The translations under genes were made by a program, and so were the position numbers. The notes under the pieces are model-generated. The model was not told the origin of the DNA and made no database searches. It saw only the letters and a program-made list of their open reading frames with translations. From an uncultured Planctomycetia bacterium (lineage in GTDB: Bacteria; Planctomycetota; UBA8108; UBA1146), in assembly GCA_964605665.1 (NCBI GenBank), contig CAZSDP010000003.1:24941-88940 (forward strand): DNA of 64,000 nucleotides, in the 5' to 3' direction. Shown here piece by piece: positions 2,931 to 57,505 of the stretch. Position 1 is the stretch's first letter, and each line of letters starts with the position of its first letter.

Positions 2931-2943
2931 CTCTCCCCTCCAT

Positions 2944-4629: not shown

Positions 4630-4864
4630 AGAACGAAGAGTACCCGAAGCGACGCGAAGGGTACAACGAGACGGCGAAGGTCTTCTCCGCTATTTTCGGG
4701 GGGAACACCGGTCAAAGCAGAGTGGCGTCCTTGACCGCCATCGAGATAGGTGCGACCTTCAAGCCCCCGAATCGGGCACATTCCCCCACGGGGACGCGGC
4801 GGTTGTCGCGGTAAACGGGCCCGCTCCGCTGGTCGAGAGCGTTGAATGAAGGAGTGACCGAGGC

Positions 4865-7732
4865 GTGACGTCTCAATCGCAACCCATCTCGAGCGAATTC
4901 GACGGGCCGAGACCTCCCGTGGAACCTCGGAGAGTCTTCCTCGGTCGCGAGCAGCCGCTGCTGGAGGCGGTGTCGGGGCGTCTCCTCCACCGCTCCACCC
5001 CAGCCCGGGATGGCGCAGCGATCGATCTCCGCGGCCTCTTGCTCCTCTTACCGGGCAAGCGAGCGGTGCGTCTCCTTCGTCAACGCCTGGTCGAAGACGC
5101 CGCTGAGCAAGGGCGCGGCGTTCTTCTTCCCAAAATGGTCACCCCCCAACAGTTTCGGTCGACTCTCTGCCGCGAGCGCCGACGAATCGCCACCCCACTG
5201 GAAACTCACCTCGCCTGGAATACAGCATTGGAAGCAGCCTCCCCGAAGAGCCGATCTCTCCTCCTTCCCGTCGATCTCACCATATCTTCTCCAGCCATCG
5301 CTCGACTTGCCCAGCGACTCGATCGACTGGCGAGGACCCTCGCAGAAGAGAGAATTCCCCTAGAGAACCCCGCTCGAATGGCGGAGAGCTCGGGAGCGAC
5401 CGAAGACTTTGCCCGACTAAAGTTTTTTGAGGCTCTCGGAGAAGATGTGGCTCAACGCCTCCTCCGAGTGGAACGGTCGACGGAGTTTCAACTTGCAGAG
5501 GAGGAGTTCGAGGACCCAGGACAGGTGATCGCGATCGGACTCTTCGATCCTCGAGGAAGAGTTCGGGAGCTACTCCAACGCCTTCGTCATCTCGAAGTCT
5601 GGATCTACGGCGAGGAGAGTGAATCAGATCGATTCGATCATCACGGATCACTCCAGTCGCCGCTCCCGTCGGAAGATCCGCTCCAAACAGAGAGCGAAGG
5701 CGCCGTTCACCGATCGCACTCCTTCCCAGATGAGAATTTCTGGATTGCACGCGACCCTGCCGAGGCAGTGCGACTCGCGGTTGAGAAGGTGGAGCGCGCC
5801 AGAAATACTGGGCAATCCCCATCGATTTGCGTTCTCGATCGGGAACTCAAGCCATTGATCGTCGACCGCCTGCAACGCCGAGGATTCCGAGTGCACGACA
5901 ATGCCAGCCGCTCGGTGCTACTCACTTCCCCCGGTCGGTTCATCACCGCGCTCCGCACCCTTCTCGAAGAGGAGCATTTCTCCGCCCTCGCAGCCTTCCT
6001 CCGGCATCCCAATGTGGAGGTTGCGGCAGAGCAGCGGCTCCCGACCTCGAAGAGTGGTGCCAGCCTTCTGAAGCTGGTCGACGAACTCTCGGCGACTTCC
6101 CTTCCTGGTCGCTGGAAATCCCTCCCCGACCGAGCGGAGTGGTTACGGCACTGCATCGCACCGTGGGTCGATCGATTCCTCGGGCCAGCGCAACCGGTCG
6201 CTCGCTGGGCAGAACATATTGCGGAGCAGATCGACCGCACCTTCCCCGGGGAAGAAGAGACCCCTGCAATCGAGATGATCCACTCCGCCATCGCCGAGCT
6301 CGCCGCGATCCCCGACCGGCTTGCCGATCCGCGAGGAGCGGTCGAAGCGTTGCGACTTCTCGAAGGCCAATTGGCAGAGCATTTCCTTCCTCTCCAAACC
6401 GAGGAGGGAGCGATCGAACTGATCGGTTGGCTCGAGGCAGAATTCGATCCTTCCCCTTCGCTGATCGTCATCGGTGCGAATGAGGGAACTCTTCCAACTC
6501 AGTCCTCGTCGATCGACCCCCTCCTCTCCAGGCAAGTCTGCCGAGCATTGCACCTCGATCGGGCGACCGAACAGCTCACTCGCGATGCGTGGATCGTGCA
6601 CAATCTGTTACAAGGACAGAAACAGGTCACGTGGATTTCTTCGCGCCAGTCTCTCGAAGGCGAAGGACTCCATCCAACACGCTTCTGGCTCGAGGAGGAA
6701 TCGACTCGAACCGAGCGAGTTCGTCGGTTCTACGGTGAGACCTCCGCACCTGCGATCTCCTCCCCCCTTCTCCCCTCCCAAGATGAAGGACCCGCGTTGG
6801 CGCTACCGACGCCGCACCAACCTGATCCACCGATCACGCGCGTTTCGGTCACCGGATTGGGGGAATACCTTCAGTGCCCATACACCTTCTATCTGCGAAG
6901 AGTGCTCAAACTCAAAGAAGTGAATGACCACTCTGACGAACTCGACCCCCTCCACTTCGGCAACCGGATCCATCACGTGCTCGAAGCACTCGGACGTGAG
7001 AAATCTCTCCTCGAAGTCGATGACGCGGAACAGATCACGGCTTTTCTCGATGAGACCCTCGCGGCGCATGTTCACCACACTCACGGGAGTCACCCCTCTG
7101 CGGTCGTCAGAATCCAACATGAACAGATGTCAGAGAGGCTCTCCGCATTCGCAGATTGGCAAGCGAACTCGGTTCGAGATGGCTGGAGAATCTACCGAGT
7201 CGAAGAGGAGATTCCCGCGCGATCCCCCAACTTCCCGATCAGCGATGATCTCATCTTCACTCTGACCGGAATCATCGACCGCATCGACCTCCACGAAGAT
7301 GGACGCAGAGTTCGGATCATCGACTACAAGACCGGCGAACAAGGCACCAGACCGCGTCAAGCGCATCAGAAGGGACGTGGACAGAATCTCACTTGGAAGA
7401 GCCTTCAGCTGCCCCTCTACCGCCACTTCTTGCCGCTGCTGGGCATCGAGCGAGCTGAGACTGAAGTCGGGTTCGTTCTTCTGCCCCGGAACCCGAGCGA
7501 GATCGGCTTTGCAGCTGCTGATTGGCGAGAGGAAGACTTCGAACACGCGATCAGTACGGCCAAAGAGGCCCTCACCGCCATCCACCGCGGAATTTTCGGC
7601 CCACCGAAGCGGCTCTCTTCCCCGTGGGACAAGATCTTCGCGGGAGAAGAGGGGACCGGTGCCTCGACCCGATTGACCGATCGCCTTCAGGAAGATTCCC
7701 CCACCAACTCGCACGGAGAGGGAGTCGGATGA
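4865..7732 (+). CDS. addB: AddB-like subunit of an AddAB-type helicase-nuclease (PD-(D/E)XK nuclease, degenerate helicase-like N-terminus)
   Basis: 955 aa with a GTG start. The C-terminal RecB-family nuclease motifs are YLQCPYTFYLRR ... GIIDRIDL ... RIIDYKTGE. No Walker A is visible in the N-terminal half. The stop overlaps the start of the helicase gene (ATGA). Confidence 0.6.
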   Translation: MTSQSQPISSEFDGPRPPVEPRRVFLGREQPLLEAVSGRLLHRSTPARDGAAIDLRGLLLLLPGKRAVRLLRQRLVEDAAEQGRGVLLPKMVTPQQFRSTLCRERRRIATPLETHLAWNTALEAASPKSRSLLLPVDLTISSPAIARLAQRLDRLARTLAEERIPLENPARMAESSGATEDFARLKFFEALGEDVAQRLLRVERSTEFQLAEEEFEDPGQVIAIGLFDPRGRVRELLQRLRHLEVWIYGEESESDRFDHHGSLQSPLPSEDPLQTESEGAVHRSHSFPDENFWIARDPAEAVRLAVEKVERARNTGQSPSICVLDRELKPLIVDRLQRRGFRVHDNASRSVLLTSPGRFITALRTLLEEEHFSALAAFLRHPNVEVAAEQRLPTSKSGASLLKLVDELSATSLPGRWKSLPDRAEWLRHCIAPWVDRFLGPAQPVARWAEHIAEQIDRTFPGEEETPAIEMIHSAIAELAAIPDRLADPRGAVEALRLLEGQLAEHFLPLQTEEGAIELIGWLEAEFDPSPSLIVIGANEGTLPTQSSSIDPLLSRQVCRALHLDRATEQLTRDAWIVHNLLQGQKQVTWISSRQSLEGEGLHPTRFWLEEESTRTERVRRFYGETSAPAISSPLLPSQDEGPALALPTPHQPDPPITRVSVTGLGEYLQCPYTFYLRRVLKLKEVNDHSDELDPLHFGNRIHHVLEALGREKSLLEVDDAEQITAFLDETLAAHVHHTHGSHPSAVVRIQHEQMSERLSAFADWQANSVRDGWRIYRVEEEIPARSPNFPISDDLIFTLTGIIDRIDLHEDGRRVRIIDYKTGEQGTRPRQAHQKGRGQNLTWKSLQLPLYRHFLPLLGIERAETEVGFVLLPRNPSEIGFAAADWREEDFEHAISTAKEALTAIHRGIFGPPKRLSSPWDKIFAGEEGTGASTRLTDRLQEDSPTNSHGEGVG

Positions 7733-10700
7733 TTTCGCAGTTTCCTTGCCATCGCCTGATCCGAGCCTCCGCAGGGTCTGGCAAAACCTACGATCTGGTC
7801 CACCGTTACATCGGTCTGATCTCAACGGGAGTCGACCCGACCCGGATCTTGGCGACCACCTTTACCAGAAAGGCTGCCGGAGAGATCCTCGGAAGGATTT
7901 TGCTCCGACTCGCCGAAGCGACGATCGATACCGAAAAACGCGCGGAGATGAATCGGTCGCTTCCGGGCCCGCTCGACGGTGAAAGCACCGAAGCGCTCCT
8001 TCGGTCGATGTGCCGAAAACTCCCCGAGCTGCAGATCGAAACTCTCGACGCGGTCTTCCATCGCATCGCATCTGTTCACTCCCTAGAACTCGATCTTCCT
8101 CCAGACTGGAAGATCGGAGATCAGGCGACACTCGCTCGAATTCGCCAACGAGCGATTCATGATTGGCTCGAAAAAGACCCAGCGGTCGCCCTCGAGGTGA
8201 TGAGGCGGTTGAGTCGCGGAGATCTTCAACGATCGGTGACGAAGCAGGTCGATGAGTTGATCGTCGAGCTTCATTCATTGTGGATCGAGTCTCCAGAGAA
8301 AGCCTGGGATACCTTCGTCGTTCCTCCCGCTCCGGGAAACGATGAGTTGAAAGACGCCGTCTGTTCACTCAAGTCACTCTCGATTCCTCAAACAAAAAGT
8401 GGGGCTCCCAGAAAGCGCTACAAGAACGCCCACCAGAAGATCTTGGAGACTCTGGAGACTGCGGACTACACACAGTTCATCAAACAGACCTTGATCCAAA
8501 AAGTCCTCGACCACTCGGGACGATTCGACTCGGCAGAGATTCCCTCCAGCTGGACCGAGGCGCTCGAGGTGCCGATCGAGTTTGCTCGCCATCAAGAGCT
8601 GAAGCACCTCACACAGCAGAATTGTGCGAGTCGTGACTTACTCGCCGCCTATGACCGGCTCGAGACCACTCGCCAAGATGACCAAGGACTCTATGACTTT
8701 TTGACCGTGACAAGACGGATCGCCGAGAGAAGTCTCACCGAGGAGATCCATGCGGTTTATGAGAGAATCGACGGCCGCATCGACCATCTCTTACTCGATG
8801 AGTTTCAAGATACCTCTCTGCTCCAGTGGTGTGTTCTGGCACCGATCGTGGAGGAACTGAGCTCGGGGCCTCCTCTTGAGCGATCGGTCTTCTGTGTCGG
8901 CGATGCGAAACAGGCGATCTACGGCTGGCGAGGAGGACGACGGGAACTCTTCGATGTGGTCGAGAACTACCTCGGACCTGAGTCTTCCCGAAGCAAAGAG
9001 GTCAGTTTCCGTTCATCTCCGGTGATCCTCGATGTGGTCAATCAAGTCTTCTCCAAGGTCGAGATGAGCTTCGACGAGGAGCAGGATGCAGAGACCGCAA
9101 AGGAGTGGCGCGCCGACTTCCCACCACACCGTGCTCATCAAGAAGAACTTCCCGGGTACGCCGAACTCCGCATCGCGAGAGCAGACTCAGCAGGTGGGGC
9201 CCCGGGGCTCACCGTCTATCTCCGGGCGATAGAGACCGTCCTCGAGCTTCAGAACCGAGATCCTGACTGCTCGATCGGAGTTCTCCTCCGCAAGAACAAA
9301 CTGGTCGCTCCGATGATCGATCTACTGCGAGAAGCGGGGATCGATGCGAGTCAAGATGGGGGGAACCCACTCACCGATTCACCTGCGGTCAATCGCATCC
9401 TCGCGTGTCTGACCATCGCAGATCACCCGGGAGATCGCGCCTCCGCCTTCGCCGTCATCGAATCGCGTCTCGGTGAGTTCTTGGGACTCAGTGATCCGGC
9501 AGATGTCGGTCGAACCGCCGAGGTGGGACGCCGAATTCGCGCGGACCTATTGCAGGGCGGATATGGTGAAACGGTGGCTCGCCTCGCTCAAGCGATCGCT
9601 CCATCGTGCAACGATCGCGATCGTTCACGACTTGAACAGTTGATTCGCTTTGCCGCTCGCTTTGATGACGAAAGAGGATTGCGCCCGCGTGAGTTCATCG
9701 AAAAAGTCTCACAAATTCCGATCGAGTCTCCATCCGGATCCCCCGTCAAAGTGATGACGATGCATCGCTCAAAAGGGCTCGAATTCGATGCCGTGATTCT
9801 CCCGCAACTGGTCGATAGTTGGTTTTCACCCACTCCAAAAATGCTCGCTACCGCAAGTGATCCGATCTTGCCCGCCGATCGGATCACCCGATATCCCAAT
9901 GAAGCGCTTCGTCTCCTTTGCCCCGAACAGCTCGACCCGATCTATCAGCTCTACCGTAAGGAGAGGATCACCGAAGCGATCAGTCTCTTGTATGTTGCCC
10001 TGACCCGCGCTCGCCATGGTCTCTATCTTTGGGTTCCGGAGAGGAAGAAAGAGGGGAAGTCTCTCAACTTCGCCAAACTACTCCTCCAGAGCCTCTGCTC
10101 TGACCGCGAGGGGGAAAATGACCAGCAACTCGAGTTGGACGATGAAAGTGACCTTCCCATCTTCCAAACAGGCGATGAAAATTGGATCGAGACTCTGCAG
10201 AAGACCTCCACAGCAGAACTCCCCAAGGGAGAAGATGCCCTGGTCGAAGCGACGATCGACCTCTCCGACGAGGCCACGGTGCCAGAAGTGGGGCGATCTC
10301 CAGACACTCTGCCACCACCATCTCAGCGTCGATCAATCCCGCTCCAGACCTCAGTCGTGGATCCACTCCAACTTGCAAAACGAAGGCGAGCGCGAAGACT
10401 GGGAATCGCCATCCACCGCCTGATCGAATCGATCACCTGGATCGAAGAGGGGGATCCCTCGGTCAGCGTGAATGAGAACGCGTCTCGTTTGGTCGGCGAG
10501 TACTTCCCATTTGCTGAACCGGCACTGGGTGCCGTTTTGCAGTTTCTGCAAATGCCAGAAGTTGAGGAACATTTCTCACAACTCCATACCCGAGCCCGCC
10601 TCACAGCGATCGCTGGTCGAGAACCGGACCACATCGATTGCGAACGCGAGTTCCTTTACGGACGCAATTCCCTCGACGCCACAACCCCCGAGATCGGCGT

Positions 10701-10947
10701 TGTCGATCGTTGCCATATCGCGTGGAGCCAAGGCATTCCGGTCGCAGCAGAGATCCTCGACATCAAGTCGACCGCGACCGATGAACCGAGTGATGCTGAG
10801 TTGGAACGGATACGTGAGAGGTCGACTCTGCAACTCGAAGCCTACCGGGCCGCGATCGGAGAGTTGCTCCAACTCGAGGAGAGTCAGATCGTGGCGAAGC
10901 TACTGATCGCTCCCGGAGGTCAGATCGTACCGATCTCTTCGGAGTGA
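7729..10947 (+). CDS. addA: UvrD/Rep-family helicase with C-terminal RecB-type nuclease (AddA-like)
   Basis: It starts at MISQFPCHRLIRASAGSGKTYDL (Walker A). Downstream UvrD motifs include TFTRKAAGEI and VDEFQDTS, and the C-terminal nuclease has VDRCHIAW...ILDIKSTA. A 4-nt overlap with the upstream gene indicates translational coupling. Confidence 0.7.
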   Translation: MISQFPCHRLIRASAGSGKTYDLVHRYIGLISTGVDPTRILATTFTRKAAGEILGRILLRLAEATIDTEKRAEMNRSLPGPLDGESTEALLRSMCRKLPELQIETLDAVFHRIASVHSLELDLPPDWKIGDQATLARIRQRAIHDWLEKDPAVALEVMRRLSRGDLQRSVTKQVDELIVELHSLWIESPEKAWDTFVVPPAPGNDELKDAVCSLKSLSIPQTKSGAPRKRYKNAHQKILETLETADYTQFIKQTLIQKVLDHSGRFDSAEIPSSWTEALEVPIEFARHQELKHLTQQNCASRDLLAAYDRLETTRQDDQGLYDFLTVTRRIAERSLTEEIHAVYERIDGRIDHLLLDEFQDTSLLQWCVLAPIVEELSSGPPLERSVFCVGDAKQAIYGWRGGRRELFDVVENYLGPESSRSKEVSFRSSPVILDVVNQVFSKVEMSFDEEQDAETAKEWRADFPPHRAHQEELPGYAELRIARADSAGGAPGLTVYLRAIETVLELQNRDPDCSIGVLLRKNKLVAPMIDLLREAGIDASQDGGNPLTDSPAVNRILACLTIADHPGDRASAFAVIESRLGEFLGLSDPADVGRTAEVGRRIRADLLQGGYGETVARLAQAIAPSCNDRDRSRLEQLIRFAARFDDERGLRPREFIEKVSQIPIESPSGSPVKVMTMHRSKGLEFDAVILPQLVDSWFSPTPKMLATASDPILPADRITRYPNEALRLLCPEQLDPIYQLYRKERITEAISLLYVALTRARHGLYLWVPERKKEGKSLNFAKLLLQSLCSDREGENDQQLELDDESDLPIFQTGDENWIETLQKTSTAELPKGEDALVEATIDLSDEATVPEVGRSPDTLPPPSQRRSIPLQTSVVDPLQLAKRRRARRLGIAIHRLIESITWIEEGDPSVSVNENASRLVGEYFPFAEPALGAVLQFLQMPEVEEHFSQLHTRARLTAIAGREPDHIDCEREFLYGRNSLDATTPEIGVVDRCHIAWSQGIPVAAEILDIKSTATDEPSDAELERIRERSTLQLEAYRAAIGELLQLEESQIVAKLLIAPGGQIVPISSE

Positions 10948-10988
10948 TCATCTCGACCTCTCAGCAGAGATCGGCGAGAATCCCCACC

Positions 10989-11930
10989 ATGTGGACATCA
11001 AAGTACATCGACTCCCATACCCTCGGAGAGCCGACTCGGCTGGTCTTGGAACCTCCCGAAGAACTCCGAGCACTCTCCGCCAAGGCGGGGGCAGAGGCTC
11101 TCACCTCTGAGCTGTTTCCGATCGCGCGTCGAGTGGTCGGCGAACCGCGAACATCCGATGCAGCTGTCGGCGCGTTCTTACTTCCGCCCCAAGACCCTTC
11201 GCACGACCACGCCGTACTCTTTTTCAATGACGTTGGGCCTCTCGCGATGTGTGTTCACGGGCTCATCGGAGTGATGGCGAGTCTTCGCTATCTGGGCGAT
11301 CAGCAGAAGGAGACTCTCCTCTTTGAAACTCCTGCGGGAACGGTTCAAGCCTCTTCCCATGAAGATGGCTCGATCTCCGTGGAAAATGTCCACAGTTATC
11401 GCTCCGCGACTCGCGTTCCGATCATCACTTCGAGTGGTCCCCTACGGGGTGAAATCGCTTGGGGTGGTAACTGGTTCTTCCATCTCGAATCTCCCCTGCC
11501 GATCGAATTAGAAAATCGCCAGTCGTTGCTCGATCTGACTCGGGAGATTCGCGTCGCGCTCGACGAGGGAGCATTGACTGGAGATGACGGCGCCCCCATC
11601 GATCACGTTGGGCTCTTTGAAAAGCCGGTGCGTTCAGAGAGTGGGCTCACCACCAAAAACTTCGTCCTTTGCCCCGGTGGAGCCTTTGACCGATCGCCGT
11701 GTGGAACAGGAACGAGTGCTTGGCTCGCCGCTCGACATGCGGCGGGAGAACTGGAGCCAGGCGAAGTGGTCAGTGTGGAGAGTGTGATCGGTTCTCGCTT
11801 CGACGGCTCGATTCGTCTCGATGAAGCTGGCGCGGTGATTCCCAGCATTCGTGGAGCCGCTCATGTCGTCGCCGAGGGCCAACTGGTCGCAGAAGAGAGC
11901 GACCCTTTTCTCGGTGGTCTACCGAAATAA
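10989..11930 (+). CDS. Proline racemase / 4-hydroxyproline 2-epimerase family protein
   Basis: YIDSHTLGEPTR N-terminal motif. Both catalytic Cys motifs are present (AMCVHG and DRSPCGTGTSA), which implies a racemase/epimerase rather than a dehydratase. The start is taken at MWTSKY; the track ORF begins 45 nt upstream. Confidence 0.75.
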   Translation: MWTSKYIDSHTLGEPTRLVLEPPEELRALSAKAGAEALTSELFPIARRVVGEPRTSDAAVGAFLLPPQDPSHDHAVLFFNDVGPLAMCVHGLIGVMASLRYLGDQQKETLLFETPAGTVQASSHEDGSISVENVHSYRSATRVPIITSSGPLRGEIAWGGNWFFHLESPLPIELENRQSLLDLTREIRVALDEGALTGDDGAPIDHVGLFEKPVRSESGLTTKNFVLCPGGAFDRSPCGTGTSAWLAARHAAGELEPGEVVSVESVIGSRFDGSIRLDEAGAVIPSIRGAAHVVAEGQLVAEESDPFLGGLPK

Positions 11931-12020: not shown

Positions 12021-14036
12021 CTACGGGCAAACTGGTGGAGTCTCGCAATCCAACACCTCGACCCGCGGATCAAATCCACAATCGGGGAACGGTGCTGATG
12101 GCCGCGGCCCCGCACCGATCGAGAAGTAAATCACGAACACCCCATCTGCTACATCGATGAAATCATCGTTGTTCGCGTCAGCGACCAGAAGACACTCCGG
12201 CTCCATTCCAACGCCAGAGATGTACTGTAGCAGCAAGATCCCATCCGCCAAATTCACCATCAAATCCTCATTGAGATCAGCGCGGATGAATCGAGTGCCG
12301 CACTCATCGGGGATACCATTCATGTCTAGATCCTCGCTGGTCCCCGAGAGGAGATCGCAGGCATCTGCGAGTCCGTTGCGATTGCAGTCTTCCGCCACCC
12401 CTGTCACCAGATCACACTCGTCGGGGATGAAGTTCCCATCGCAATCGGTCGAGAGTCCGAAGAAAATATCGCAGTCATCCGGATTTCCGTTCGAGTTGCA
12501 ATCTGGCACCGACCCGGAAGAGATGTCGCAATCGTCCGGAGCTCCATTGGCATTACAATCCGACTCACAAGCATCGAGCAATCCGTTGCCGTTACAGTCC
12601 TCGAGTGCGATCTCACAGATGTCGATCTCCCCATTGAGATCGCAATCTTCCGCTCCTGCGAGGAGATCACAGAGATCGATCACTCCATTCCCGTCACAAT
12701 CGGTCGCCGCACCAGAAATCAGTTCGCACTCATCCGGAATGTTGTTTCCATCGCAGTCCGTCAAAGCGCCGGTCGCAAACTGACAGAGGTCTGGAGTCCC
12801 ATCGAGGTCACAGTCTGTTCCTCCCACGACAAATCGGTGCACGGTTCCACTTCCAAAACCGAAAGTATTGTCGAGAAACGCTCCCGCGATGATTTCACCG
12901 TCATAGATCGAAACTGAGCCACCGAGCAAGGAGCCGACCACTGGCACCGAAGCGGTCACGGTATCGATCACTGAAAAAATGGACCCGTCGTCAAAGAAGC
13001 GATGGGCTGCACCAGCGGCGAAGGCACCGCCGGCAGTGGCGAATGGTTCACCGATCACCGCTTCGTTCCCTTCAAGAGCGAGGGAAGACCCGAAGAACTG
13101 ATTCGGACCTGGTGACGGAGAAACGATCACTGGAGCCTCTTCCCAGGCGTTTCCATCACGGCGGAAAGGGATCACCGCCCCAGCATCGGGCTCACTCGAA
13201 GAGGAAAAGGGAGCTCCCGCTAGAATCAAATTGGGAGTCATCGCCAGCGAGGTGCCGAGGAGTTCTCCTCCCACCGCCGTGGCTGAAGTCAACTGGTGGG
13301 TTTCTCTCCAGTCATCCCCGACATTCGCGAACACCACGACCGAACCTGCGTCGAGAAAACCTTGATTCGACTCCGGTGCTCCCACTGCGATTCGATCGCC
13401 GGAGATCGCAACCGCAGTCCCAAATGCGTCTCCTTGGTCCCCAACACTGGAAGCCAATTTTGCCTCGTGGGTCCATACGCCTGCGACTCTACGAAACACT
13501 GAAGCGCTGCCCACTTCATTACCCGCGAGATCGATGTCAAATGGACTTCCCACCACGATGACGTCTCCCGAGATGGCGACGCTCGCTCCAAATTCGTCAA
13601 AGGCTCCCCCATCTGGATCGGAGAGGGTGGCAACCTCATCCCAAGAGAAGCCGGAGAATTCGAAAACCCGCACCGAGCCGGAGTCGACTCCGAGAAGATC
13701 GTCTCCGCGGAGACCGACCACCAGGGTGGTTCCTTCGATCGCGAGGGCAGAGCCGGATTGATCCCCCGCGGCGAGGTCATCTGCAAAGAGAATCGAGCTG
13801 GAAATCCACTCCGATCCACTCCTGGTAAACACGTAGACCGCTCCCGCGCCAGGCGCGATCACACCGGAGCCAGGTGCACCGACGACCAACACGTCTTCCG
13901 ATCGGGTGACCGCGAACCCGTAACGGGCCCCGCCACCCACCCCGGTCGGTCGAATCTGATCGGTGAGGCACCATTGAGCAAAAGAGTTGGAGTGCAGCGC
14001 TGGAAGCAGGAGGGCCAGAAGGAGGATCGAGAGCAT
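12021..14036 (-). CDS. Secreted FG-GAP (integrin-alpha-like beta-propeller) repeat protein with eight Cys-rich Ca-binding DCxxNGxxDxC repeats and a C-terminal dockerin-like/Cys module
   Basis: Signal peptide MLSILLLALLLPALHSNSFAQ; start placed at this Met (14036), the track ORF runs to 14249. Several FG-GAP-like units (VGAPGSG...VYVF, AISGDVIVVGSP, AISGDRIAVGAPES...VVVF). Eight 16-aa repeats such as TDCDGNNIPDECE and EDCNRNGLADACD. The C-terminus is DLNEDLMVNLADG...ADANNDDFIDVADG...PSAPFPDCGFDPRVEVLDCETPPVCP. Confidence 0.7.
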   Translation of the reverse strand: MLSILLLALLLPALHSNSFAQWCLTDQIRPTGVGGGARYGFAVTRSEDVLVVGAPGSGVIAPGAGAVYVFTRSGSEWISSSILFADDLAAGDQSGSALAIEGTTLVVGLRGDDLLGVDSGSVRVFEFSGFSWDEVATLSDPDGGAFDEFGASVAISGDVIVVGSPFDIDLAGNEVGSASVFRRVAGVWTHEAKLASSVGDQGDAFGTAVAISGDRIAVGAPESNQGFLDAGSVVVFANVGDDWRETHQLTSATAVGGELLGTSLAMTPNLILAGAPFSSSSEPDAGAVIPFRRDGNAWEEAPVIVSPSPGPNQFFGSSLALEGNEAVIGEPFATAGGAFAAGAAHRFFDDGSIFSVIDTVTASVPVVGSLLGGSVSIYDGEIIAGAFLDNTFGFGSGTVHRFVVGGTDCDLDGTPDLCQFATGALTDCDGNNIPDECELISGAATDCDGNGVIDLCDLLAGAEDCDLNGEIDICEIALEDCNGNGLLDACESDCNANGAPDDCDISSGSVPDCNSNGNPDDCDIFFGLSTDCDGNFIPDECDLVTGVAEDCNRNGLADACDLLSGTSEDLDMNGIPDECGTRFIRADLNEDLMVNLADGILLLQYISGVGMEPECLLVADANNDDFIDVADGVFVIYFSIGAGPRPSAPFPDCGFDPRVEVLDCETPPVCP
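12270..12825 (-). repeat. Coding tandem repeats, 8 copies of a 48-nt unit encoding DC(D/N)xNGxxDxC(D/E) (thrombospondin-type-3-like Ca-binding Cys repeats)
   Basis: Eight consecutive 16-aa units with conserved D-C-x-x-N-G-x-x-D-x-C-D/E spacing are visible in the translation. Confidence 0.55.
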
Positions 14037-14938
14037 CGAGCAGCGCTTTCCGCGACGATCGACGCACCGCGACTCTCCCCGACTCTCTGGCTCAACGTGG
14101 ATCTGAAAATTGGCTGAACTGCGTGAAGCTATCGCGTCGTTCGTCAGTCGATCGATTTCAAACGGTCTCTTCAACTGTGGAGCGGGGGCACCTCGAGATG
14201 CCATGAAACGACTCCTGTAGGCCGCCCGAAGGGGCAGCATTCTCCTCATCGATCACTCGAAGGGTGAACCCCAGCACTGGGTCCCATGGCAACCTCGCCA
14301 CGGATCTTCGAAACCGTGAGGTCTCCTCACACGCCTCCCGGTGGATCACCGGCGTCCGATAGAGTGGAAGGGAGCCGAATAGATGGTCGCAGCTCGAAGC
14401 TGGCGCGACGAAGATTTGGTCAGCGGCATTCGGTGGCGGAATGGAAGCACCGCGGATCAAAACCTCGGTTAAGAGACGTCGAAAAACAACATCTAAAAAC
14501 CGCGCTACGATCGCCGCGGGCACATCTGGACCACGACAACCGCTGACAAGTGGGCAGCCTCAATCTTGGACACTGCCTGGACGACCTACTGAACAAACAG
14601 CGAGGGCAAAGGAAATTTCCCCCCAACCCCTCTTGCTCAATGATCTGTTTATTCAAGAAGTCGAGCCGCCACCAATTTAAGTGCAGAGGTGGATGCGGTC
14701 AAGGAGCAAGACAAACCCGCGCCCTGTCGCGCTTCTCGAGAAATCGCGCAGCAATGCTGCCGTCACGAGTGATTCGCTGAGAATCATTGCTCTGAAAAGA
14801 TTGTCGAAGCCCACTCTTTACCGCGTTACATCGCCTCGGAGAGTCGGGGCGAGGTCGAGCCAAACACTCACCGTTCGACTGTGGCGTCCCCCACAATCAT
14901 CGCGCAAGCCTCCCGCCTCGAATGTGGTCAATCTTCGC

Positions 14939-16420
14939 TCAGAAGGGATCCCCCAACTTCCGGGGCCAGCTCTCTGGAGGGGCCTGCGGCTCGGGGTCTC
15001 CACCTGGGCGAATGTGATCGAGAATTCCCGCTGCATCTTGGTCATAGGCGACTCGCCCACCCACCACAGTCCACTGAGGAAGCGTGAGATAATGGAGCAG
15101 ATCCCCATCGGTGATCACGAAGTCAGCGTCTTTTCCGACCTCAATCGACCCCACCCGATGATCGACTCCAAGCAACCTCGCCGCATCCAACGTGATCGCT
15201 TTCACCGCAGCTTCGTCCGGCATCCCGCCACGCACCGCGAACGCCGCTTCGAGTGGTAAGTTGAGAAGATCTCGCCCAGCGAGGCCGGAAAGTGAAATTC
15301 CGCCCCCCGCGGCGAAGAGACTTCCCACGGGGAAGATGGCGAAGGTGACCCCATGGCGATGCAGAATCGATGCATTTTCGATCGAACCGCCGTTCGGTGC
15401 GACTCTGAGATCATTTCGATCACGTCGCGCCCTTGGCGTCAAAACAAGCTGAGCGCCAGAACGCGCGATTTCAGGAGCGACAATCCACCCCTCCTCAGCC
15501 CCCTGGATCACCAGAGCGAAGTCGAAACGTTCCGCCAAAGCACAGATGTCGCGGATCTCCTGAGCTTCCGAAAGACGAATCCACCCCACGACCTTGCGAT
15601 CGATCAATCTCTCCGCGGTGGAGTACAAGCCGCGGATCCACTTACGATCGAGGTCTTTGAGTTCTGGATCTTCCTTCTTCTTTTCTTCGTGCCGTACCAG
15701 CTCCCGTTTGAATTCACGAATCCGCTCGAGAGCTTCTCGAAGCTCCCGTCGTGACGCTGGATTTCTCGTGGAGTATCTCAAGTTCACAAACGAAGTCGTC
15801 CCCAAGTCGATCTCATCGAGAGTGCCGTAGGCGAGTTTGACGATGTTGTTTCCGGTGCGAGCGGTCGTCACTCCCCCCGCCAACGCGAGGAGTAAGTTGA
15901 ACGCATACGGATTGGTCGATTTTGGACTCGAGACGATTCCGGAAGAATCGATCGCAACCAAACCCGGATAGACGTGATGCCCGTCGACCGCCAATGTTTC
16001 ACAATCTGACGGCAGAGGGAGATCGACTCCAATCTCGTGAATGCGACCGTTCTTGCAAAGAATCGTCCCCGCCTCGATCACCCCATCAGAGACGGTGTGG
16101 ATCATTCCTCCCACTACGGCGAACCAACGATCGTCCGGTTCCTCGGCAGATTCTTCCTCGTCGTTCTGCTGTTCCTTCGCTTTCTGCGACGGCTCGCCTG
16201 ACTTGTTCCGGCGTCCTGGGCGTCGTCGCGGACGGGGAGGATCGTCCGCCTCCTCCGATCCCTTTTCCAATGCGGCTTCCACGGCCTCGGGCGACGGTAA
16301 GGGCAAAATCTGAGCGGAAGTGGAGCCCACCGCCGTCAGGAGCAAAAGAATCAGGAGTAGCATCCGATCGCTCCGCCACAAAGCTCGCACAACCTGGGAG
16401 TCTGAACCGATGCCTCTCAT
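14939..16420 (-). CDS. Secreted amidohydrolase-fold protein, paralog 1 of 8 (COG1228-like), with a K/E-rich insert
   Basis: Signal peptide MLLLILLLLTAVGSTSAQ. C-terminal amidohydrolase signature AVKAITLDAARLLGVDHRVGSIEVGKDADFVITDGDLL. The HxH position reads IDSSG and appears lost. The start at MRGIG makes an ATGA overlap with the upstream paralog. Confidence 0.7.
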   Translation of the reverse strand: MRGIGSDSQVVRALWRSDRMLLLILLLLTAVGSTSAQILPLPSPEAVEAALEKGSEEADDPPRPRRRPGRRNKSGEPSQKAKEQQNDEEESAEEPDDRWFAVVGGMIHTVSDGVIEAGTILCKNGRIHEIGVDLPLPSDCETLAVDGHHVYPGLVAIDSSGIVSSPKSTNPYAFNLLLALAGGVTTARTGNNIVKLAYGTLDEIDLGTTSFVNLRYSTRNPASRRELREALERIREFKRELVRHEEKKKEDPELKDLDRKWIRGLYSTAERLIDRKVVGWIRLSEAQEIRDICALAERFDFALVIQGAEEGWIVAPEIARSGAQLVLTPRARRDRNDLRVAPNGGSIENASILHRHGVTFAIFPVGSLFAAGGGISLSGLAGRDLLNLPLEAAFAVRGGMPDEAAVKAITLDAARLLGVDHRVGSIEVGKDADFVITDGDLLHYLTLPQWTVVGGRVAYDQDAAGILDHIRPGGDPEPQAPPESWPRKLGDPF

Positions 16421-17829
16421 CGCCCCTCCTCCCAAACCCACTCACCCGCAATCATCGTTCGTGTCACTCGAGTCGCCGCGGCAAAAGGATCGCCATCGAG
16501 GAAGATGAGATCTGCAGAACGTCCCTTCTCGATCGCACCACACGTCTCCGCAATTCCCAAGAACTGCGCCGGAGCCTCGGTGATCGCCCGGAGAGCAACA
16601 TCTCGGTCGAGACCCTGCCGGATCAAGTCGGCGATTCGGCTCCGCCACCGGGAAAACTCGAGAGCAGAGTCGGAGCTCGGAACGAAGATCACCGTCGCTC
16701 CTGCACGAGACACCTCCGCTGGGAGATGGACGCGACTGACGGTATTGGGCAGATTTGTGATTCTCGGTTGCAAGATCACCGTCGCTCCCCATTCGCCCAG
16801 CGTCGGGAACATTTGACGTTGCTCCAAACGCGAGTTTGGAACGAATTGGATGTTCCGATGCTTCTCGGTCGCCAACTGGGGATATTCCGACACGATCTGT
16901 TCCCAATGTAGAAAGCTCCCGGCGTCGGTCAGTTCGACCATCAGGGAGAGAGAGGTGGAATCTTCACGAAGGATCGAAACCAACGGTTGTAGTTCGTCTG
17001 GAATCTCCGGAGGGACGAATCGAGCAGGCTTCTTCGGAGCCTCCTCACCGGATTCTTTCTCGGCGGACGATCCACTCTCATCCGCCTCAGGAGGAGCAAC
17101 GCCAGGAGGTTTCTTCTCCCCCGCTTCTTTCTTTTGCTTCGCCTCCGCTTTCTTCTTCTCTTCTGCTTGCTTCTTGTCCCACTCCGCTTTCGCCTTCTCT
17201 GCTTTTTCGATCTCCTTTTTTGCCCGATTGAGTCCCTTTTCGAGAGTGCTGCGGTCGCGACTGACCCGGGTCATCGTAATCGGAAGATAGGCATCTTCCC
17301 GCAAGATCACCGTCTCTTTAGCCACCGGAGGACGCACCACTCCGGCACGTCCCAGAATCCCGGAGCCACTCGGAACATACGCAGCAGCGACGATGCCCGC
17401 CCTGAGAAACGCCTCACCGTCGACCCGATCCGCGTCGACCTCGGAGGTCGCACGAAGTTGTCCGAAGACTCCTTGCCTCCGATATGAGGGGAGACCAAAG
17501 CGGGTTCGGGCGACCACGAGACCAGGCATCACCGTTTCTGACCGCGCTGAAATTCTCCGCGCACCGGGAGGGACTTCGAGATTTTGCCCCACCAGAGTGA
17601 TCTCGCCATCCTCGATGACGACCATTCCCGGAGAGTAGTCCTCTCCCGTGACGGTGATCACCCTTCCCGCATCGATCACCACTAAGCGATCCGATTCTGG
17701 AGTCGCCTCGACATTCGTCGACGCGATCAAAAGCACGACGAGGAGCACCCACGGGAGTTGCTCGCTTCTGCGAATCGAGCGCCGGCTAAAAGACACGCTC
17801 CACCTCCGCGTCATAGACCAACTTTCCAT
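16417..17829 (-). CDS. Secreted amidohydrolase-fold protein, paralog 2, with a long Lys/Glu-rich coiled-coil insert
   Basis: Signal peptide LPWVLLVVLLIASTNVEA. Insert KKEIEKAEKAKAEWDKKQAEEKKKAEAKQKKEAGEKK. C-terminal motif ALRAITEAPAQFLGIAETCGAIEKGRSADLIFLDGDPF. No HxH (PGLVVARTRFG). Confidence 0.7.
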   Translation of the reverse strand: MESWSMTRRWSVSFSRRSIRRSEQLPWVLLVVLLIASTNVEATPESDRLVVIDAGRVITVTGEDYSPGMVVIEDGEITLVGQNLEVPPGARRISARSETVMPGLVVARTRFGLPSYRRQGVFGQLRATSEVDADRVDGEAFLRAGIVAAAYVPSGSGILGRAGVVRPPVAKETVILREDAYLPITMTRVSRDRSTLEKGLNRAKKEIEKAEKAKAEWDKKQAEEKKKAEAKQKKEAGEKKPPGVAPPEADESGSSAEKESGEEAPKKPARFVPPEIPDELQPLVSILREDSTSLSLMVELTDAGSFLHWEQIVSEYPQLATEKHRNIQFVPNSRLEQRQMFPTLGEWGATVILQPRITNLPNTVSRVHLPAEVSRAGATVIFVPSSDSALEFSRWRSRIADLIRQGLDRDVALRAITEAPAQFLGIAETCGAIEKGRSADLIFLDGDPFAAATRVTRTMIAGEWVWEEGR

Positions 17830-19051
17830 CGACCACCGTCAAATCGCACCGATTTCGCGGATCGAGAGGATCACCTGACCACAGTCCGAAACTCGCCTCT
17901 TTGCCCACCTCGATCGATCCTTGCTCGGTGAGCATCAGTGACTCCGCCGGAACCTGGGTAATTCCCTTGAGAGCCTCGTAAGGAGTCCAACCGAAGTAAC
18001 AAGCAATCGCCGCTTGAAAGGCCAGCTCCTCTTGCGGAATCACCGGCGCGTCGGTGTTGATGCCGAGATGACGGACGCCACCCTCCCACCAACGAGCTGC
18101 ATTTCCAAAGATCTTGCGCTGGGTTCGATCGAACTGTAACTGCCGGGGACCGTTGATCACTCTCAGCGACTCATCTTCGAGCACCAGCGGAGCGATCTTG
18201 TACCCATCGAAGGTGCAGTGATCGAGAACGGTTCGGATACCGAACTTCCGTGCCAACATATCAACAGTCGTCATCATCACCTGGTAACCCTGAGTGTGAA
18301 CTGAAGCGACAAATTGACGCTCGAAGAGGCCGCGAAACGGCTCGAAGATCGGGTCCGGATCGGGTTTCTCTGCCGACTTCCCTGCTTCGAAATCACTCCA
18401 ACGTCGATGGTATTCGTAGGCTTTCTCGAGGGTCTGACGGGTGTTGAAGTTCATGAAGGAACGACCGGTTCGTCGTCCGCCGAAGAAGTAACTCTCCGGA
18501 TTTCCCGCCTGCGCCACTTTGATCGACCCATAAGGTTTGACCACCGCCTCCTCGACGGTGCCCCCGCCCGTGCGCAGCAAGGTGCCAAACCCCGACATGT
18601 TGTTCCCGCTGCCGGGGATCGTCAGGACGGTCGTCACCCCTGCAGCGCGCGCTCGCTCCATGTTCTTCGATTCAGTGACGATCGACTCCAACGTTCGATA
18701 CCCGGGATTGGTGAGGAATACATAGTCGTGGAGATCGGGTGAACTTCCTCCGGTGTGGTTGTGAGCATCCACCATCCCTGGGACGAGCCAGTGGTGCGGT
18801 CGGTCGATCACCTCTGCCCCGGAGGGGAGATCGATCGTCCCGACCTTCCCGACCGCGGTGATCTGACGCCCCTTCACAATGACGATCGCTCGATTGATCA
18901 CCGTGTCTTTCTCATCCATGGTCAGCACTTTGCCAACCTTGAAGACACGCACCTGATCATCGGCATACACTGGAATGCACAGCATCGACAGGAGCAGCAA
19001 CGCGCAGAATTTCCTGGCCCACCGATGAACGTCGTTCTGATCATAGATCAT
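17786..19051 (-). CDS. Secreted amidohydrolase, paralog 3; the only copy with an intact HxH metal-binding motif
   Basis: Signal peptide FCALLLLSMLCIPVYA. PGMVDAHNHTGG is a canonical amidohydrolase HxH strand. C-terminal motif IEVGKEASFGLWSGDPLD. ATGA overlap with paralog 4. Confidence 0.75.
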   Translation of the reverse strand: MIYDQNDVHRWARKFCALLLLSMLCIPVYADDQVRVFKVGKVLTMDEKDTVINRAIVIVKGRQITAVGKVGTIDLPSGAEVIDRPHHWLVPGMVDAHNHTGGSSPDLHDYVFLTNPGYRTLESIVTESKNMERARAAGVTTVLTIPGSGNNMSGFGTLLRTGGGTVEEAVVKPYGSIKVAQAGNPESYFFGGRRTGRSFMNFNTRQTLEKAYEYHRRWSDFEAGKSAEKPDPDPIFEPFRGLFERQFVASVHTQGYQVMMTTVDMLARKFGIRTVLDHCTFDGYKIAPLVLEDESLRVINGPRQLQFDRTQRKIFGNAARWWEGGVRHLGINTDAPVIPQEELAFQAAIACYFGWTPYEALKGITQVPAESLMLTEQGSIEVGKEASFGLWSGDPLDPRNRCDLTVVDGKLVYDAEVERVF

Positions 19052-21864: not shown

Positions 21865-21865
21865 C

Positions 21866-23278: not shown

Positions 23279-23364
23279 CGGGTCGTTCTCGTCTCTGTTC
23301 GAAGTCCCACTGACGTGGGGCTCGATGATCGAAAGGCCTCCGAAAAGACCTTCGAACCACCGAA

Positions 23365-55092: not shown

Positions 55093-55240
55093 CAGTCCCA
55101 CAAGTGAGTGCCCGGTGGCTGAAAGGGGTCAAATCCTCTGCTATCATCGCCATCGGTATTGCGTCGGCTCCAATGATCGATTGAAAGTACTGTTGCCTGC
55201 TGCTGAAGAGGGCCCTACTGCTGAAGAGGTCAATGTGACG

Positions 55241-57505
55241 ATGAAAACCGCTCTGCATTCTCAACTGCCCCGCATCCTGGTGATCTTTCTCTTCTTCCTT
55301 CTCTCATCCCCTGTCACTCCTCTCTTCGCACAGGCTGCCCAGGACGATTGCGACGACAGTGTGCTCATCGGACTCGGCGTGACGATGTATGACACGACTT
55401 TGGCGACCACAGACGGTCCTGAGCCTTGCGCCCTACTGGGGAGCGACATCTGGTTCCGATTCATCGCACCAAACACCACGAACTATGAGATCTCTCTCTG
55501 CGCAGGGACATCTTACGACGCAGCCTTGGCCATCTATCCGGGGATGATTGCCTGTCCACCCACCGCGACCGATGCGATCGCGTGCGATGATGATGGTTGC
55601 ACCGGAGCGGCAACTCTCAACTCGTTCGTGACCATCCACCTCTCGGCGGGACAAGAGATCTTGATTCAGGTGGGCGGATACGATGGGGCAATTGGCTCTG
55701 GCGAAATCACCATCACTGAATTGGCAGCTCCGTCGGCACCCGATCAATGTGCAAATGCGGAAGAGATCTTCGAAGGCGTAACGGCCTTTGAAACATTGAC
55801 CTCCACGACGGATGGGCCTCAAGCATGTGCACAAATCGGCAGTGACGTCTGGTTCACGTTCACTGCTCCCTCTGACGGATCTTGGCGGATCAGCCTCTGT
55901 GCCGGCACGAATTACGATGCCGCTCTGGCCGTGTATCCGGGCAGCGTCAGTTGCCCCCCCACCGACAACGATGTTCTCACTTGCAATGATGACGGATGCT
56001 TCGGAGCTGGTCCTCCCATCGCCATCATTTCTTTGAATAGTGGAGAACAGATCTTGCTCCAGGTTGGTGGCTGGAGTTCTGCAGCAGGGATCGGCGAGAT
56101 CGTCATCGACGACGTTCCCCCACTGCCGGCGGGAGCGGACATCCTGATTGGAGAGATTTCCAACTTCGTCCAGTTCGGTCGACTCGCCGATGAAATCGGT
56201 TGCGGCATCGAGTCAGTGACTTGCAATGCGGGGGCTGAACCTCTCGATTGGTTTGGCAATCCCGATCCTCGTCACCCCTTCATCACCACCGCTGCATATC
56301 GGTTGGAGAATGGTCGCTTCTACCAAATCGGTATGTCTTGGGCGAAGCACGGTTTCGCCGCCGCTCAGACCAACGCATGCAATCTCGGCTGCAGCCCTTT
56401 CCCGAACGGTACGCGACTGGGAAGTGGCTGCTCCGATGTCTATGGAGCATCGACCAATGCCGCCCAGCAGTTCCTTGGACCGAGATCTGAGATCAACCCC
56501 TGGACGGGAGCCTACGAATACTCGACTTCGATACTCTCCAGCACTTCGGGGCCGTACGATCCGATCGAACGACGACTTCGAATCCAAGATCGCGACGTCG
56601 ATCCGAGCATGCATCCTGGAGCTGAGTACTTCTGTGAAGTCTTGGTGCTCGCCCACGACGACGTCGACCACCTCAACAGCGTCGCGTGGCAGCCGATTTC
56701 GGTCAGTCCGATGAGTCCTAGTGGTGTCTTCACCTTCGATACTGCTGCCACCAGTACCCTCGGTCCGGCGATTTTTGCCTGGCCCGACGCGACAATCGTC
56801 GAAGTGCTCGAACCGACCGCGCAGGACGGTCGCGTCTTTGTCGGTCATCGTGCGATCGAGCTCGGGGGTGATCTCTGGCGTTATGAATATGCGATTCAGA
56901 ACCTCGACTTGAACTCGGGAATCGGTTCCTTCGAGATTCCTGTACCTGCCGGAGTGACCGTTTCGAACTTACAGTTTCACGCACCGAACCAGCACGAGCC
57001 CAATTTTGCCGATGAACCGTGGCAGGGGACCAGGCAAACTGATTCCGTTCGTTGGGAGACGAACCCGATCGGCTCTCCAGCTCTGACCAATCCGATTCGC
57101 TGGGGAGCTCTCTACAATTTCTCTTTCACGGCGGATTCCCCCCCGGAGTCGGTGACTGCAATCCTCGAAACCTATGATCCCAGTATTCTCACCTCGATGA
57201 GTGCTGACGTGGTTTCACCGCTCGCGCCTCCCCTGGTGGAGAGCTTCCGCCGTGGAGACATCAATGCGGATGGCCTCTACGATGTGGCGGACGTGATCGC
57301 TGGCCTCCAATGCCTCTTCTTCTGCTTCCCAGCTTGCCTCGACGCGCACGACGTCAACGATGATGGACAGTGGGATATCGCCGACCCGATCTACGAACTC
57401 GACTACCTCTTCTCCGGAGGTCCATCGCCCGCCGCGCCATTTCCAGAGTGTGGCGAAGACTTAACCGCCGATGCCCTCGACTGTCAGAGCTATCAATGCC
57501 CGTGA
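55241..57505 (+). CDS. Secreted protein with two ~150-aa pre-peptidase-C-terminal-like repeats, a central domain of unknown function and a C-terminal dockerin-like/Cys module
   Basis: Signal peptide MKTALHSQLPRILVIFLFFLLSSPVTPLFAQA (the track ORF starts at 55115). Repeat 1 is DDCDDSVLIGLG...TTDGPEPCALLGSDIWFRFIAP...ISLCAGTSYDAALAIYPG...CDDDGC; repeat 2 is DQCANAEEIFEG...TTDGPQACAQIGSDVWFTFTAP...ISLCAGTNYDAALAVYPG...CNDDGC. The C-terminus is GDINADGLYDVADV...HDVNDDGQWDIADP...PAAPFPECGEDLTADALDCQSYQCP. Confidence 0.65.
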   Translation: MKTALHSQLPRILVIFLFFLLSSPVTPLFAQAAQDDCDDSVLIGLGVTMYDTTLATTDGPEPCALLGSDIWFRFIAPNTTNYEISLCAGTSYDAALAIYPGMIACPPTATDAIACDDDGCTGAATLNSFVTIHLSAGQEILIQVGGYDGAIGSGEITITELAAPSAPDQCANAEEIFEGVTAFETLTSTTDGPQACAQIGSDVWFTFTAPSDGSWRISLCAGTNYDAALAVYPGSVSCPPTDNDVLTCNDDGCFGAGPPIAIISLNSGEQILLQVGGWSSAAGIGEIVIDDVPPLPAGADILIGEISNFVQFGRLADEIGCGIESVTCNAGAEPLDWFGNPDPRHPFITTAAYRLENGRFYQIGMSWAKHGFAAAQTNACNLGCSPFPNGTRLGSGCSDVYGASTNAAQQFLGPRSEINPWTGAYEYSTSILSSTSGPYDPIERRLRIQDRDVDPSMHPGAEYFCEVLVLAHDDVDHLNSVAWQPISVSPMSPSGVFTFDTAATSTLGPAIFAWPDATIVEVLEPTAQDGRVFVGHRAIELGGDLWRYEYAIQNLDLNSGIGSFEIPVPAGVTVSNLQFHAPNQHEPNFADEPWQGTRQTDSVRWETNPIGSPALTNPIRWGALYNFSFTADSPPESVTAILETYDPSILTSMSADVVSPLAPPLVESFRRGDINADGLYDVADVIAGLQCLFFCFPACLDAHDVNDDGQWDIADPIYELDYLFSGGPSPAAPFPECGEDLTADALDCQSYQCP

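Follow-up and report, generated by a model that had tools for sequence, protein, structure and literature searches.

Two secreted proteins encoded in a 64,000-nucleotide stretch from an uncultured Planctomycetia bacterium (hereafter, the window; GenBank assembly GCA_964605665.1, contig CAZSDP010000003.1, positions 24,941 to 88,940) end in the same module of about 90 residues. With high confidence, this module is a dockerin-family domain with a novel extension. It consists of a divergent type I dockerin core, made of two duplicated Ca-binding loop-helix segments, and a tail of ~30 residues. Taken as a whole, the sequence and model data make it likely that the module is a stapled dockerin that works by docking onto cohesins.

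A C-terminal module shared by two secreted proteins

The full-length carrier proteins were compared by BLASTP. Their C-termini aligned as a single segment with 32 of 84 residues identical (38%, E 6e-13), and no further alignment was found between the two proteins outside this segment, which bears out the preliminary description of a module shared by otherwise unrelated secreted proteins. Such a resemblance far exceeds what chance would give, as a search with the module profile retrieves 41,439 cluster representatives at E ≤1e-3. The module is an autonomous unit. Two DxNxD(G)xxDxxD loops are present in each tail, which terminates in APFP(D/E)CG...LDC...CP at the stop codon, as had been noted from the two sequences. 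The interval first given for the copy on the minus strand (12021-12310) was also correct, with the stop codon at 12021-12023 and the 92-residue module at 12024-12299. A six-frame motif scan and a hidden Markov model (HMM) scan of all open reading frames (ORFs) found no third copy in the window.

The first carrier is encoded by ORF 12021..14249 (minus strand, 742 amino acids), with a probable start at Met72 (position 14036) that gives the signal peptide MLSILLLALLLPALHSNSFAQ, and its C-terminus reads ...PSAPFPDCGFDPRVEVLDCETPPVCP-stop. The second (ORF 55115..57505, plus strand) probably starts at 55241 with the signal peptide MKTALHSQLPRILVIFLFFLLSSPVTPLFAQ and ends in ...PAAPFPECGEDLTADALDCQSYQCP-stop. 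The second protein, an uncharacterised dockerin cargo, has two N-terminal repeats of ~130 residues that match only GBD_T9SS_assoc in Pfam, weakly and below threshold; its central ~370 residues matched neither Pfam nor PDB entries.

Residues ~478-651 of the first carrier (12297-12818, minus strand) form about 10 tandem Cys repeats of ~17 residues, DCxxNGxPDxC(D/E)(L/I)xxG, which matched nothing in Pfam or NCBIfam. The same repeats stand directly before the module in many metagenome fragments (P0175, P0184, P0188, P0211 and P0228) and likewise in a gene of a related locus (L006:965-2713).

Dockerin identity of the module core

Profile A2, built from 13 sequences (both window copies and 11 database relatives), matched solved type I dockerins over profile positions 5-60 (2y3n_B, E 2.6e-6; 1daq_A, 4e-5; 3ul4_B, 1.9e-4). 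Positions 61-91, the tail, matched none of the PDB sequences. An AlphaFold2 model of copy 1, the module of the FG-GAP protein, was computed from a 56-sequence alignment and reached a predicted local distance difference test (pLDDT) score of 92.8 and a predicted template modelling (pTM) score of 0.84, with helices at residues 17-27 and 50-60. When this model was searched against the PDB with Foldseek, the best 31 matches were all dockerins, with a root-mean-square deviation (rmsd) of 1.4-2.0 Å over ~60 residues, probability 1.00 and target-normalised TM-scores of 0.7-0.83; the tail was again uncovered. A dockerin three-dimensional fold is thus predicted for the module.

Both window copies have the dockerin architecture of two tandem segments of ~22 residues, each made of a 12-residue Ca loop (D-x-N/D-x-D-G-x-x-x-x-x-D) and then a helix. 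Across 498 family copies, loop columns 1, 3, 5 and 12 (D, N, D and D in loop 1 of copy 1) are 87-100% conserved, and the Ca-ligand columns overall 74-100%. The earlier assignment of the loops to the dockerin or EF-hand type agrees with these ligand columns and with their alignment to dockerin loop 1 in the PDB matches.

EF-hand Pfam families and PDB chains do occur among the weak matches, and the module could accordingly be read as a generic EF-hand pair or as a compositional artefact of Asp/Asn-rich loops. We find this hardly credible. The EF-hand chains matched profile A2 only at E 0.0085 or worse (~0.01), so that the dockerin E-values are better by ~3-4 orders of magnitude; the top structural matches are all dockerins; and conservation spans all 90 residues, including non-loop positions and the tail. 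A canonical EF-hand pair was rejected on the best E-values (≥0.0085 versus 2.6e-6 for dockerins) and on the absence of EF-hand structures among the confident Foldseek fold matches of the copy 1 model.

PF00404 is present in the precomputed annotation of about half of the database matches, and several Planctomycetota relatives carry the NCBI name 'dockerin type I repeat-containing protein'. Neither the two proteins nor their tails matched any NCBIfam model. The preliminary description did not recognise the module, which remains apt for the tail, absent from curated models (none in NCBIfam, and Dockerin_1 stops short of it), and does not hold for the core, which belongs to a known dockerin family.

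The module has a conserved lead-in, F-x-R-G-D (profile positions 4-8; window 12276-12290 and 57245-57259), in which R is 99%, G 93% and D 92% conserved; the window variants are RAD in copy 1 and RGD in copy 2. The aligned classical dockerins lack an equivalent of the invariant Arg, which may contact the acidic tail.

A conserved tail with paired cysteines

The tail has the consensus GGPxPxAPFPxCGxDPTxDxLxCxxxxCP over ~30 residues, and is covered neither by Pfam Dockerin_1 nor by any solved dockerin that was matched. It is conserved like the core and the Ca loops (P69 98%, G74 96%, C84 95%, P71 85% and D76 78% in the 498 copies; profile positions equal the copy-1 residue number minus one from about residue 31 on).

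The cysteines occur in pairs. C35 and C84 (profile numbering) are both present in 471 of the 498 copies and both missing in 12. For C73 and a terminal Cys at or beyond position 86, 231 copies have both, 224 have neither and 43 are discordant (Fisher 2e-93, a figure inflated by the shared ancestry of the sequences). Both window copies hold four cysteines, C36, C74, C85 and C91 in copy-1 numbering, of which C36 lies between the loops. From these co-occurrences we infer two putative disulfides, C36-C85 and, in this subtype, C74-C91. By pinning the last residue but one, the C74-C91 bond would account for a stop directly after Cys-Pro. An optional third pair, profile C9/C39 with one Cys in each Ca loop (GNCNGD ... 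ACDAND), is complete in 75 of the 498 copies and suggests a third disulfide linking both loops.

No description of a Cys-stapled PxAPFPxCGxDPTxDxLxC...CP extension was found in the literature, an absence that is weak evidence because a text search cannot find sequence motifs. The module represents a dockerin subfamily with an undescribed, putatively disulfide-stapled extension, and most of its members are unannotated.

Family size and distribution

An exhaustive HMMER search over 1.84 billion cluster representatives (50% identity clusters) returned the 41,439 module proteins mentioned above at E ≤1e-3, of which 23,835 remained at E ≤1e-10. The pattern P[APS]APFPDCG, taken from the narrower alignment A3 because A2 was too variable, was scanned over one genome per GTDB species. 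This gave 164 confirmed matches, nearly all in metagenome-assembled genomes (MAGs) of Planctomycetota and several per genome, and the names of many of these MAGs suggest marine water-column samples. The genome of the window is not among the GTDB representatives, and the best match was 46% identical. In 80 loci selected by the pattern, most of them from Planctomycetota MAGs, and for that reason biased to the two-disulfide, Planctomycetota-type module, the HMM detected 179 module-bearing ORFs.

A few module proteins carry other labels, namely Armatimonadetes, 'Candidatus Poseidoniia archaeon', Proteobacteria or Bacillota MAGs (P0227, P0228 and P0248; loci L004/L047/L081 and L077). These may be binning errors or reflect a true spread of the subfamily.

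Position of the module and the sorting-signal interpretation

In the stop-bearing ORFs of the 80 loci, 159 of 172 complete copies (92%) finish at most 8 residues before the stop, and 129 at most 1 residue before it; most C-terminal copies in the Planctomycetota loci end in Cys-Pro. In another database sample, made up of short proteins and fragments, 123 of 131 copies were C-terminal as well, and ~82% of multi-copy proteins end with a module copy. Extreme C-terminal placement, first noticed in the two window proteins, is therefore overwhelming in Planctomycetota genomes. PEP-CTERM/exosortase, LPXTG/sortase and the C-terminal domain (CTD) of the type IX secretion system (T9SS) are likewise characterised by a conserved module that recurs at the very end of many unrelated secreted proteins in one genome, and the bias would suit a sorting or attachment signal, in which a dedicated enzyme or secretion system recognises the APFP-CG...CP terminus and cleaves it or attaches the protein to the envelope.

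We consider such a signal very improbable. Among the 150 proteins with the best scores, complete modules with their tail also occur directly behind signal peptides, internally and as 4-7 tandem copies. Non-C-terminal complete modules amount to 203 copies in these proteins and 12 in the loci; for the two-disulfide form there are 46 N-terminal or internal cases in the top 150 and 12 in the loci (at least 58 in all, tandem copies among them). The 150 proteins were ranked by summed score and thus over-represent multi-copy proteins, so they cannot serve for a family-wide C-terminal fraction. Since the complete unit is conserved at any protein position, the module is a domain and not a terminal signal peptide. 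Its last 30 residues, read from the sequence, are rich in Pro, Asp and Cys, end in Cys-Pro, and have neither a hydrophobic stretch that could form a membrane helix nor a cluster of Arg and Lys. The module is confidently predicted as a globular, helical, Ca-binding dockerin fold. A T9SS CTD, a beta-sandwich of ~80-100 residues, was rejected on this predicted fold, and the GBD_T9SS_assoc match lies outside the module.

Pfam scans of ~40 window ORFs found no sortase, exosortase, rhombosortase or T9SS component, and the co-occurring processing enzyme envisaged at the outset was thus not seen in the window. Classical dockerins likewise prefer the C-terminus, so the C-terminal bias needs no sorting function. 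The comparison with PEP-CTERM, LPXTG and the T9SS CTD is not supported, and the suggestion of a new sorting pathway falls with it; anchoring stays reasonable in the sense of a dockerin docking onto a cohesin. The preliminary description had named a known dockerin domain with mostly internal positions as the outcome that would speak against a C-terminal signal. We found a dockerin-family domain that does occur internally, but internal positions are the minority and the C-terminal bias is real.

Divergent cohesin-like domains and cargo in related loci

Many module proteins of the loci share an N-terminal domain of ~150 residues (hereafter, domain X) with the hallmark GWSFGVCHD or GFxFxxxYD. Domain X and the module go together: 102 of 110 X-bearing ORFs also carry the module, and the remaining 8 are cut by the locus end. 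A profile of 40 X sequences (A8) matched the cohesins 1g1k_A (E 2.7e-5, residues 4-140 of 143) and 2vn5_A (3.6e-5). Its PDB matches were mostly cohesins, including the five best, with four FlgE flagellar-hook chains only at E ~0.02; an earlier profile of 12 sequences had reached just E 0.084 against a cohesin. Individually, 8 of the 40 sequences matched Pfam Cohesin (PF00963, best 8e-8) and no other family was matched, and P0042 exceeds the gathering score of that family. Homology to both cohesin profiles and solved cohesins indicates that domain X is probably a divergent cohesin.

Genes with one to six cohesin-like domains (Coh) followed by the dockerin (Doc) form conserved clusters in the related Planctomycetota loci. 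One cluster consists of Coh2-Doc, Coh3-Doc, Coh2-Doc and then a Big_5/FG-GAP/TIG protein of ~1,690 residues, all four ending in the module; it is found in L002, L003, L007, L009, L014, L015, L017, L025, L040 and L059, at about positions 900-11700 of each. These Coh-Doc clusters fit a non-cellulosomal cohesin-dockerin assembly of the hypothesised 'planctosome' kind.

The non-cohesin cargo in the loci is chiefly FG-GAP propellers, as in the first window protein. Lamin-tail domains (LTD), beta-helices, nucleases, a sulfatase, S8 and S11 peptidases and a di-haem oxidoreductase were also found, so that the cargo is varied and of extracellular types. Among 35 cargo proteins, only 3 matched Dockerin_1 at E ≤1e-5.

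Many proteins of ~115 residues consist of a signal peptide and a single module, that is, free secreted dockerins (P0004, P0005, P0164, P0168, P0171, P0172, P0180, P0204 and others). They might act as competitors, caps or regulators.

A proposed docking model and its main rival

Both carriers have Sec signal peptides, so the module would fold outside the cytoplasm after Sec export of the two proteins. By homology, the exported module should bind two Ca2+, and its tail would fold back onto the dockerin core, stapled by C36-C85 and C74-C91. The cargo, in the window the FG-GAP propeller protein and the uncharacterised 796-residue protein, would then dock in a Ca-dependent manner onto cohesins carried by partner proteins, and the result would be a complex outside the cell or on its surface. 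The putative partners in the marine relatives are the products of the clustered genes, with one to six divergent cohesins and then the same dockerin, and proteins with both kinds of module could chain onto each other. That the module works by cohesin docking is, in our estimate, probable, at a slightly lower level than the overall interpretation given at the start.

The main rival is a dockerin-derived, Ca2+- and disulfide-stabilised unit that no longer binds cohesin. It would bind a different ligand, such as a glycan of the cell surface, peptidoglycan, proteins of some other class or the surface of prey, or it would simply stabilise secreted proteins in Ca-rich seawater. The free ~115-residue proteins are common, which is odd for a pure docking tag, and tandem arrays of 4-13 copies, the many module proteins without a cohesin in the same locus and the lack of a cohesin in the window all point the same way. 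The 41,439 clusters also far outnumber the recognisable cohesins seen here, and the tail might mask or change some of the dockerin surface. Against this, the cohesin-like domain is essentially confined to module-bearing polypeptides in conserved gene clusters of relatives, as one would expect of a cognate pair. After each loop, moreover, the helix positions are alike in both halves of the module (I/L then A/S), as they are in dockerins with a dual binding mode. We regard a module that no longer binds cohesin as unlikely.

Several points nevertheless weigh against a stapled, cohesin-docking dockerin. A scan of the 64-kb window with the X profile found no cohesin-like domain, so a cohesin partner in the source organism is assumed; the cohesin identity of domain X in relatives depends on profile matches at E ~1e-5; and the AlphaFold2 model of P0280, which combines the cohesin-like domain with the module, reached a pLDDT of just 44.7 (15 sequences). 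To our knowledge, many non-cellulosomal dockerins have no demonstrated cohesin partner. The proposed disulfide pairing derives from co-occurrence among related sequences, whose common descent inflates the statistic given above. Finally, copy 1 has Leu at the usual Gly position of loop 1 (DLNEDL), and its tail scores 20.9 bits with Pfam Dockerin_1, for which the gathering score is 22.9 bits, and copy 2 has no match. Dockerin membership thus holds at the family level, via transitive homology, since many relatives pass the Pfam threshold (P0012 with 148.8 bits, P0020 with 79.5 and L006 with 29.9) while the window copies miss it.

A further, rather doubtful possibility is a separate extracellular system of marine Planctomycetota that assembles itself from the stapled dockerins and the divergent cohesins, with Coh(n)-Doc proteins from tandem clusters daisy-chained into a surface lattice or fibre. 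The lattice would carry FG-GAP propellers, nucleases, sulfatases and peptidases on display, and the stapled tail would serve as a novel element of specificity or stability suited to oxidising, Ca-rich seawater. Such a system would also mean a widespread non-cellulosomal 'planctosome' that standard domain models have largely missed.

Comparison with known systems

In textbooks, dockerin-cohesin pairs figure as the modular glue that holds cellulosomes together, and synthetic biology makes wide use of them. The module resembles the cellulosomal type I dockerins (PF00404; Clostridium thermocellum Cel48S/Xyn10B, PDB 2mte, 1ohz and 2ccl) in its two 12-residue Ca loops with helices, in its predicted fold (rmsd 1.4-2 Å over ~60 residues), in its usual C-terminal place on secreted cargo and in its co-occurrence with cohesins. 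It differs by the conserved ~30-residue extension PxAPFPxCGxDPTxDxLxC...CP and by its one to three conserved Cys pairs, whereas the matched dockerin chains end shortly past the second helix and have no Cys tail. The lead-in F-x-R-G-D, 92-99% conserved, is a further difference, as are the non-cellulolytic cargo, the Planctomycetota instead of Firmicutes hosts and scores that are often under the Pfam threshold.

Cohesin and dockerin modules detached from cellulose degradation were described in freshwater Planctomycetes by Andrei et al. 2019, who proposed a hypothetical 'planctosome' (PMC6461901). The passages of that report on these modules place cohesins and dockerins on non-cellulolytic extracellular proteins, including LTD proteins and peptidases, and describe adaptor-like proteins with both, as in the loci studied here. 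The same passages concern one freshwater family and standard domain annotation and do not mention a Cys-stapled tail, whereas the system proposed here comes from marine MAGs with tandem Coh(1-6)-Doc clusters and mostly FG-GAP cargo.

In contrast to the sorting domains discussed above, the module is helical and Ca-binding by prediction, lacks a transmembrane helix and basic tail, and occurs in N-terminal, internal and tandem positions, with no partner enzyme seen in the window. A different parallel is offered by the giant proteins of Omnitrophota, a PVC-related phylum, which exceed 30,000 residues and have dockerin/CBM35-like ladder repeats (bioRxiv 10.1101/2023.11.21.568195). These very large extracellular proteins contain many dockerin/EF-hand and TSP3 repeats, and multi-copy members of the module family also carry TSP3_bac (P0012).

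The results describe a very large and mostly unannotated dockerin subfamily (~41,000 clusters at 50% identity) that travels with divergent cohesins in gene clusters unrelated to cellulose. They support the hypothetical extracellular multiprotein complexes of Planctomycetota, with dockerin-cohesin clusters now found in marine MAGs too, and account for many 'hypothetical' C-termini in marine metagenomes. They also point to a coverage gap in Pfam and NCBIfam, as seen in the 3 of 35 cargo proteins that match Dockerin_1 and in the sub-threshold scores of both window proteins. With so large and poorly annotated a subfamily and its divergent cohesins in clusters, the 'planctosome' idea becomes directly testable; for the window, the prediction is that the FG-GAP protein and the 796-residue protein are displayed in such a complex.

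Features and neighbourhood in the window

Table 1 Coordinates of the carrier genes and of the two module copies in the window (aa, amino acids)
Feature	Position	Strand	Description
Carrier gene 1	12021..14036	-	Signal peptide, six FG-GAP_2 repeats, ~10 DCxxNGxPDxC(D/E) repeats (12297-12818), module
Carrier gene 1, alternative start	up to 14249	-	Longer ORF possible
Module copy 1	12024..12299	-	92 aa, C-terminus of the FG-GAP protein; dockerin core and Cys tail; HMM 118.9 bits
Stop codon of copy 1	12021-12023	-	
Putative Ca-binding loop 1, copy 1	12243..12278	-	DLNEDLMVNLAD, module residues 8-19; aligns with dockerin loop 1 of PDB matches
Putative Ca-binding loop 2, copy 1	12144..12179	-	DANNDDFIDVAD, module residues 41-52; basis as for loop 1
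Tail of copy 1	12024..12116	-	GAGPRPSAPFPDCGFDPRVEVLDCETPPVCP, residues 62-92, with C74, C85 and C91
Carrier gene 2	55241..57505	+	Signal peptide, two ~130-aa repeats, ~370-aa region, module
Module copy 2	57236..57502	+	89 aa, C-terminus of the 796-aa protein; HMM 117.4 bits
Stop codon of copy 2	57503-57505	+	
Putative Ca-binding loop 1, copy 2	57257..57292	+	DINADGLYDVAD; read from the sequence and the alignment with copy 1
Putative Ca-binding loop 2, copy 2	57350..57385	+	DVNDDGQWDIAD; read from the sequence and the alignment with copy 1
Tail of copy 2	57413..57502	+	SGGPSPAAPFPECGEDLTADALDCQSYQCP; alignment with copy 1 and family conservation

Directly upstream of the FG-GAP/dockerin gene lies a run of eight consecutive Amidohydro_1/Amidohydro_3 genes (14939-27469, minus strand) encoding proteins of 402-531 residues, one of them a 975-residue double. 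An orthologous metagenome contig (L001) has the same neighbourhood, with amidohydrolases adjoining the FG-GAP gene and a proline racemase. On the other side of the FG-GAP gene, at 108-4629 (minus strand) and 4865-10947 (plus strand), a molybdopterin oxidoreductase stands beside a fused 4Fe-4S/NrfD protein, and an AddB-like PD-(D/E)XK nuclease, an ORF of ~1,100 residues for a UvrD/AddA-like helicase and a proline-racemase-family gene (10944-11930) follow. Convergent with the second carrier gene is an unannotated ORF of 159 residues (57510-57989, minus strand).

Two thioredoxin-fold proteins are encoded at 33311-34324 and 43920-45047 (both plus strand). One is Thioredoxin_2/7/DsbH-like, and the second is AhpC/TSA-like with an N-terminal extension of ~230 residues. 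Though generic, they could be relevant to extracytoplasmic disulfide formation.

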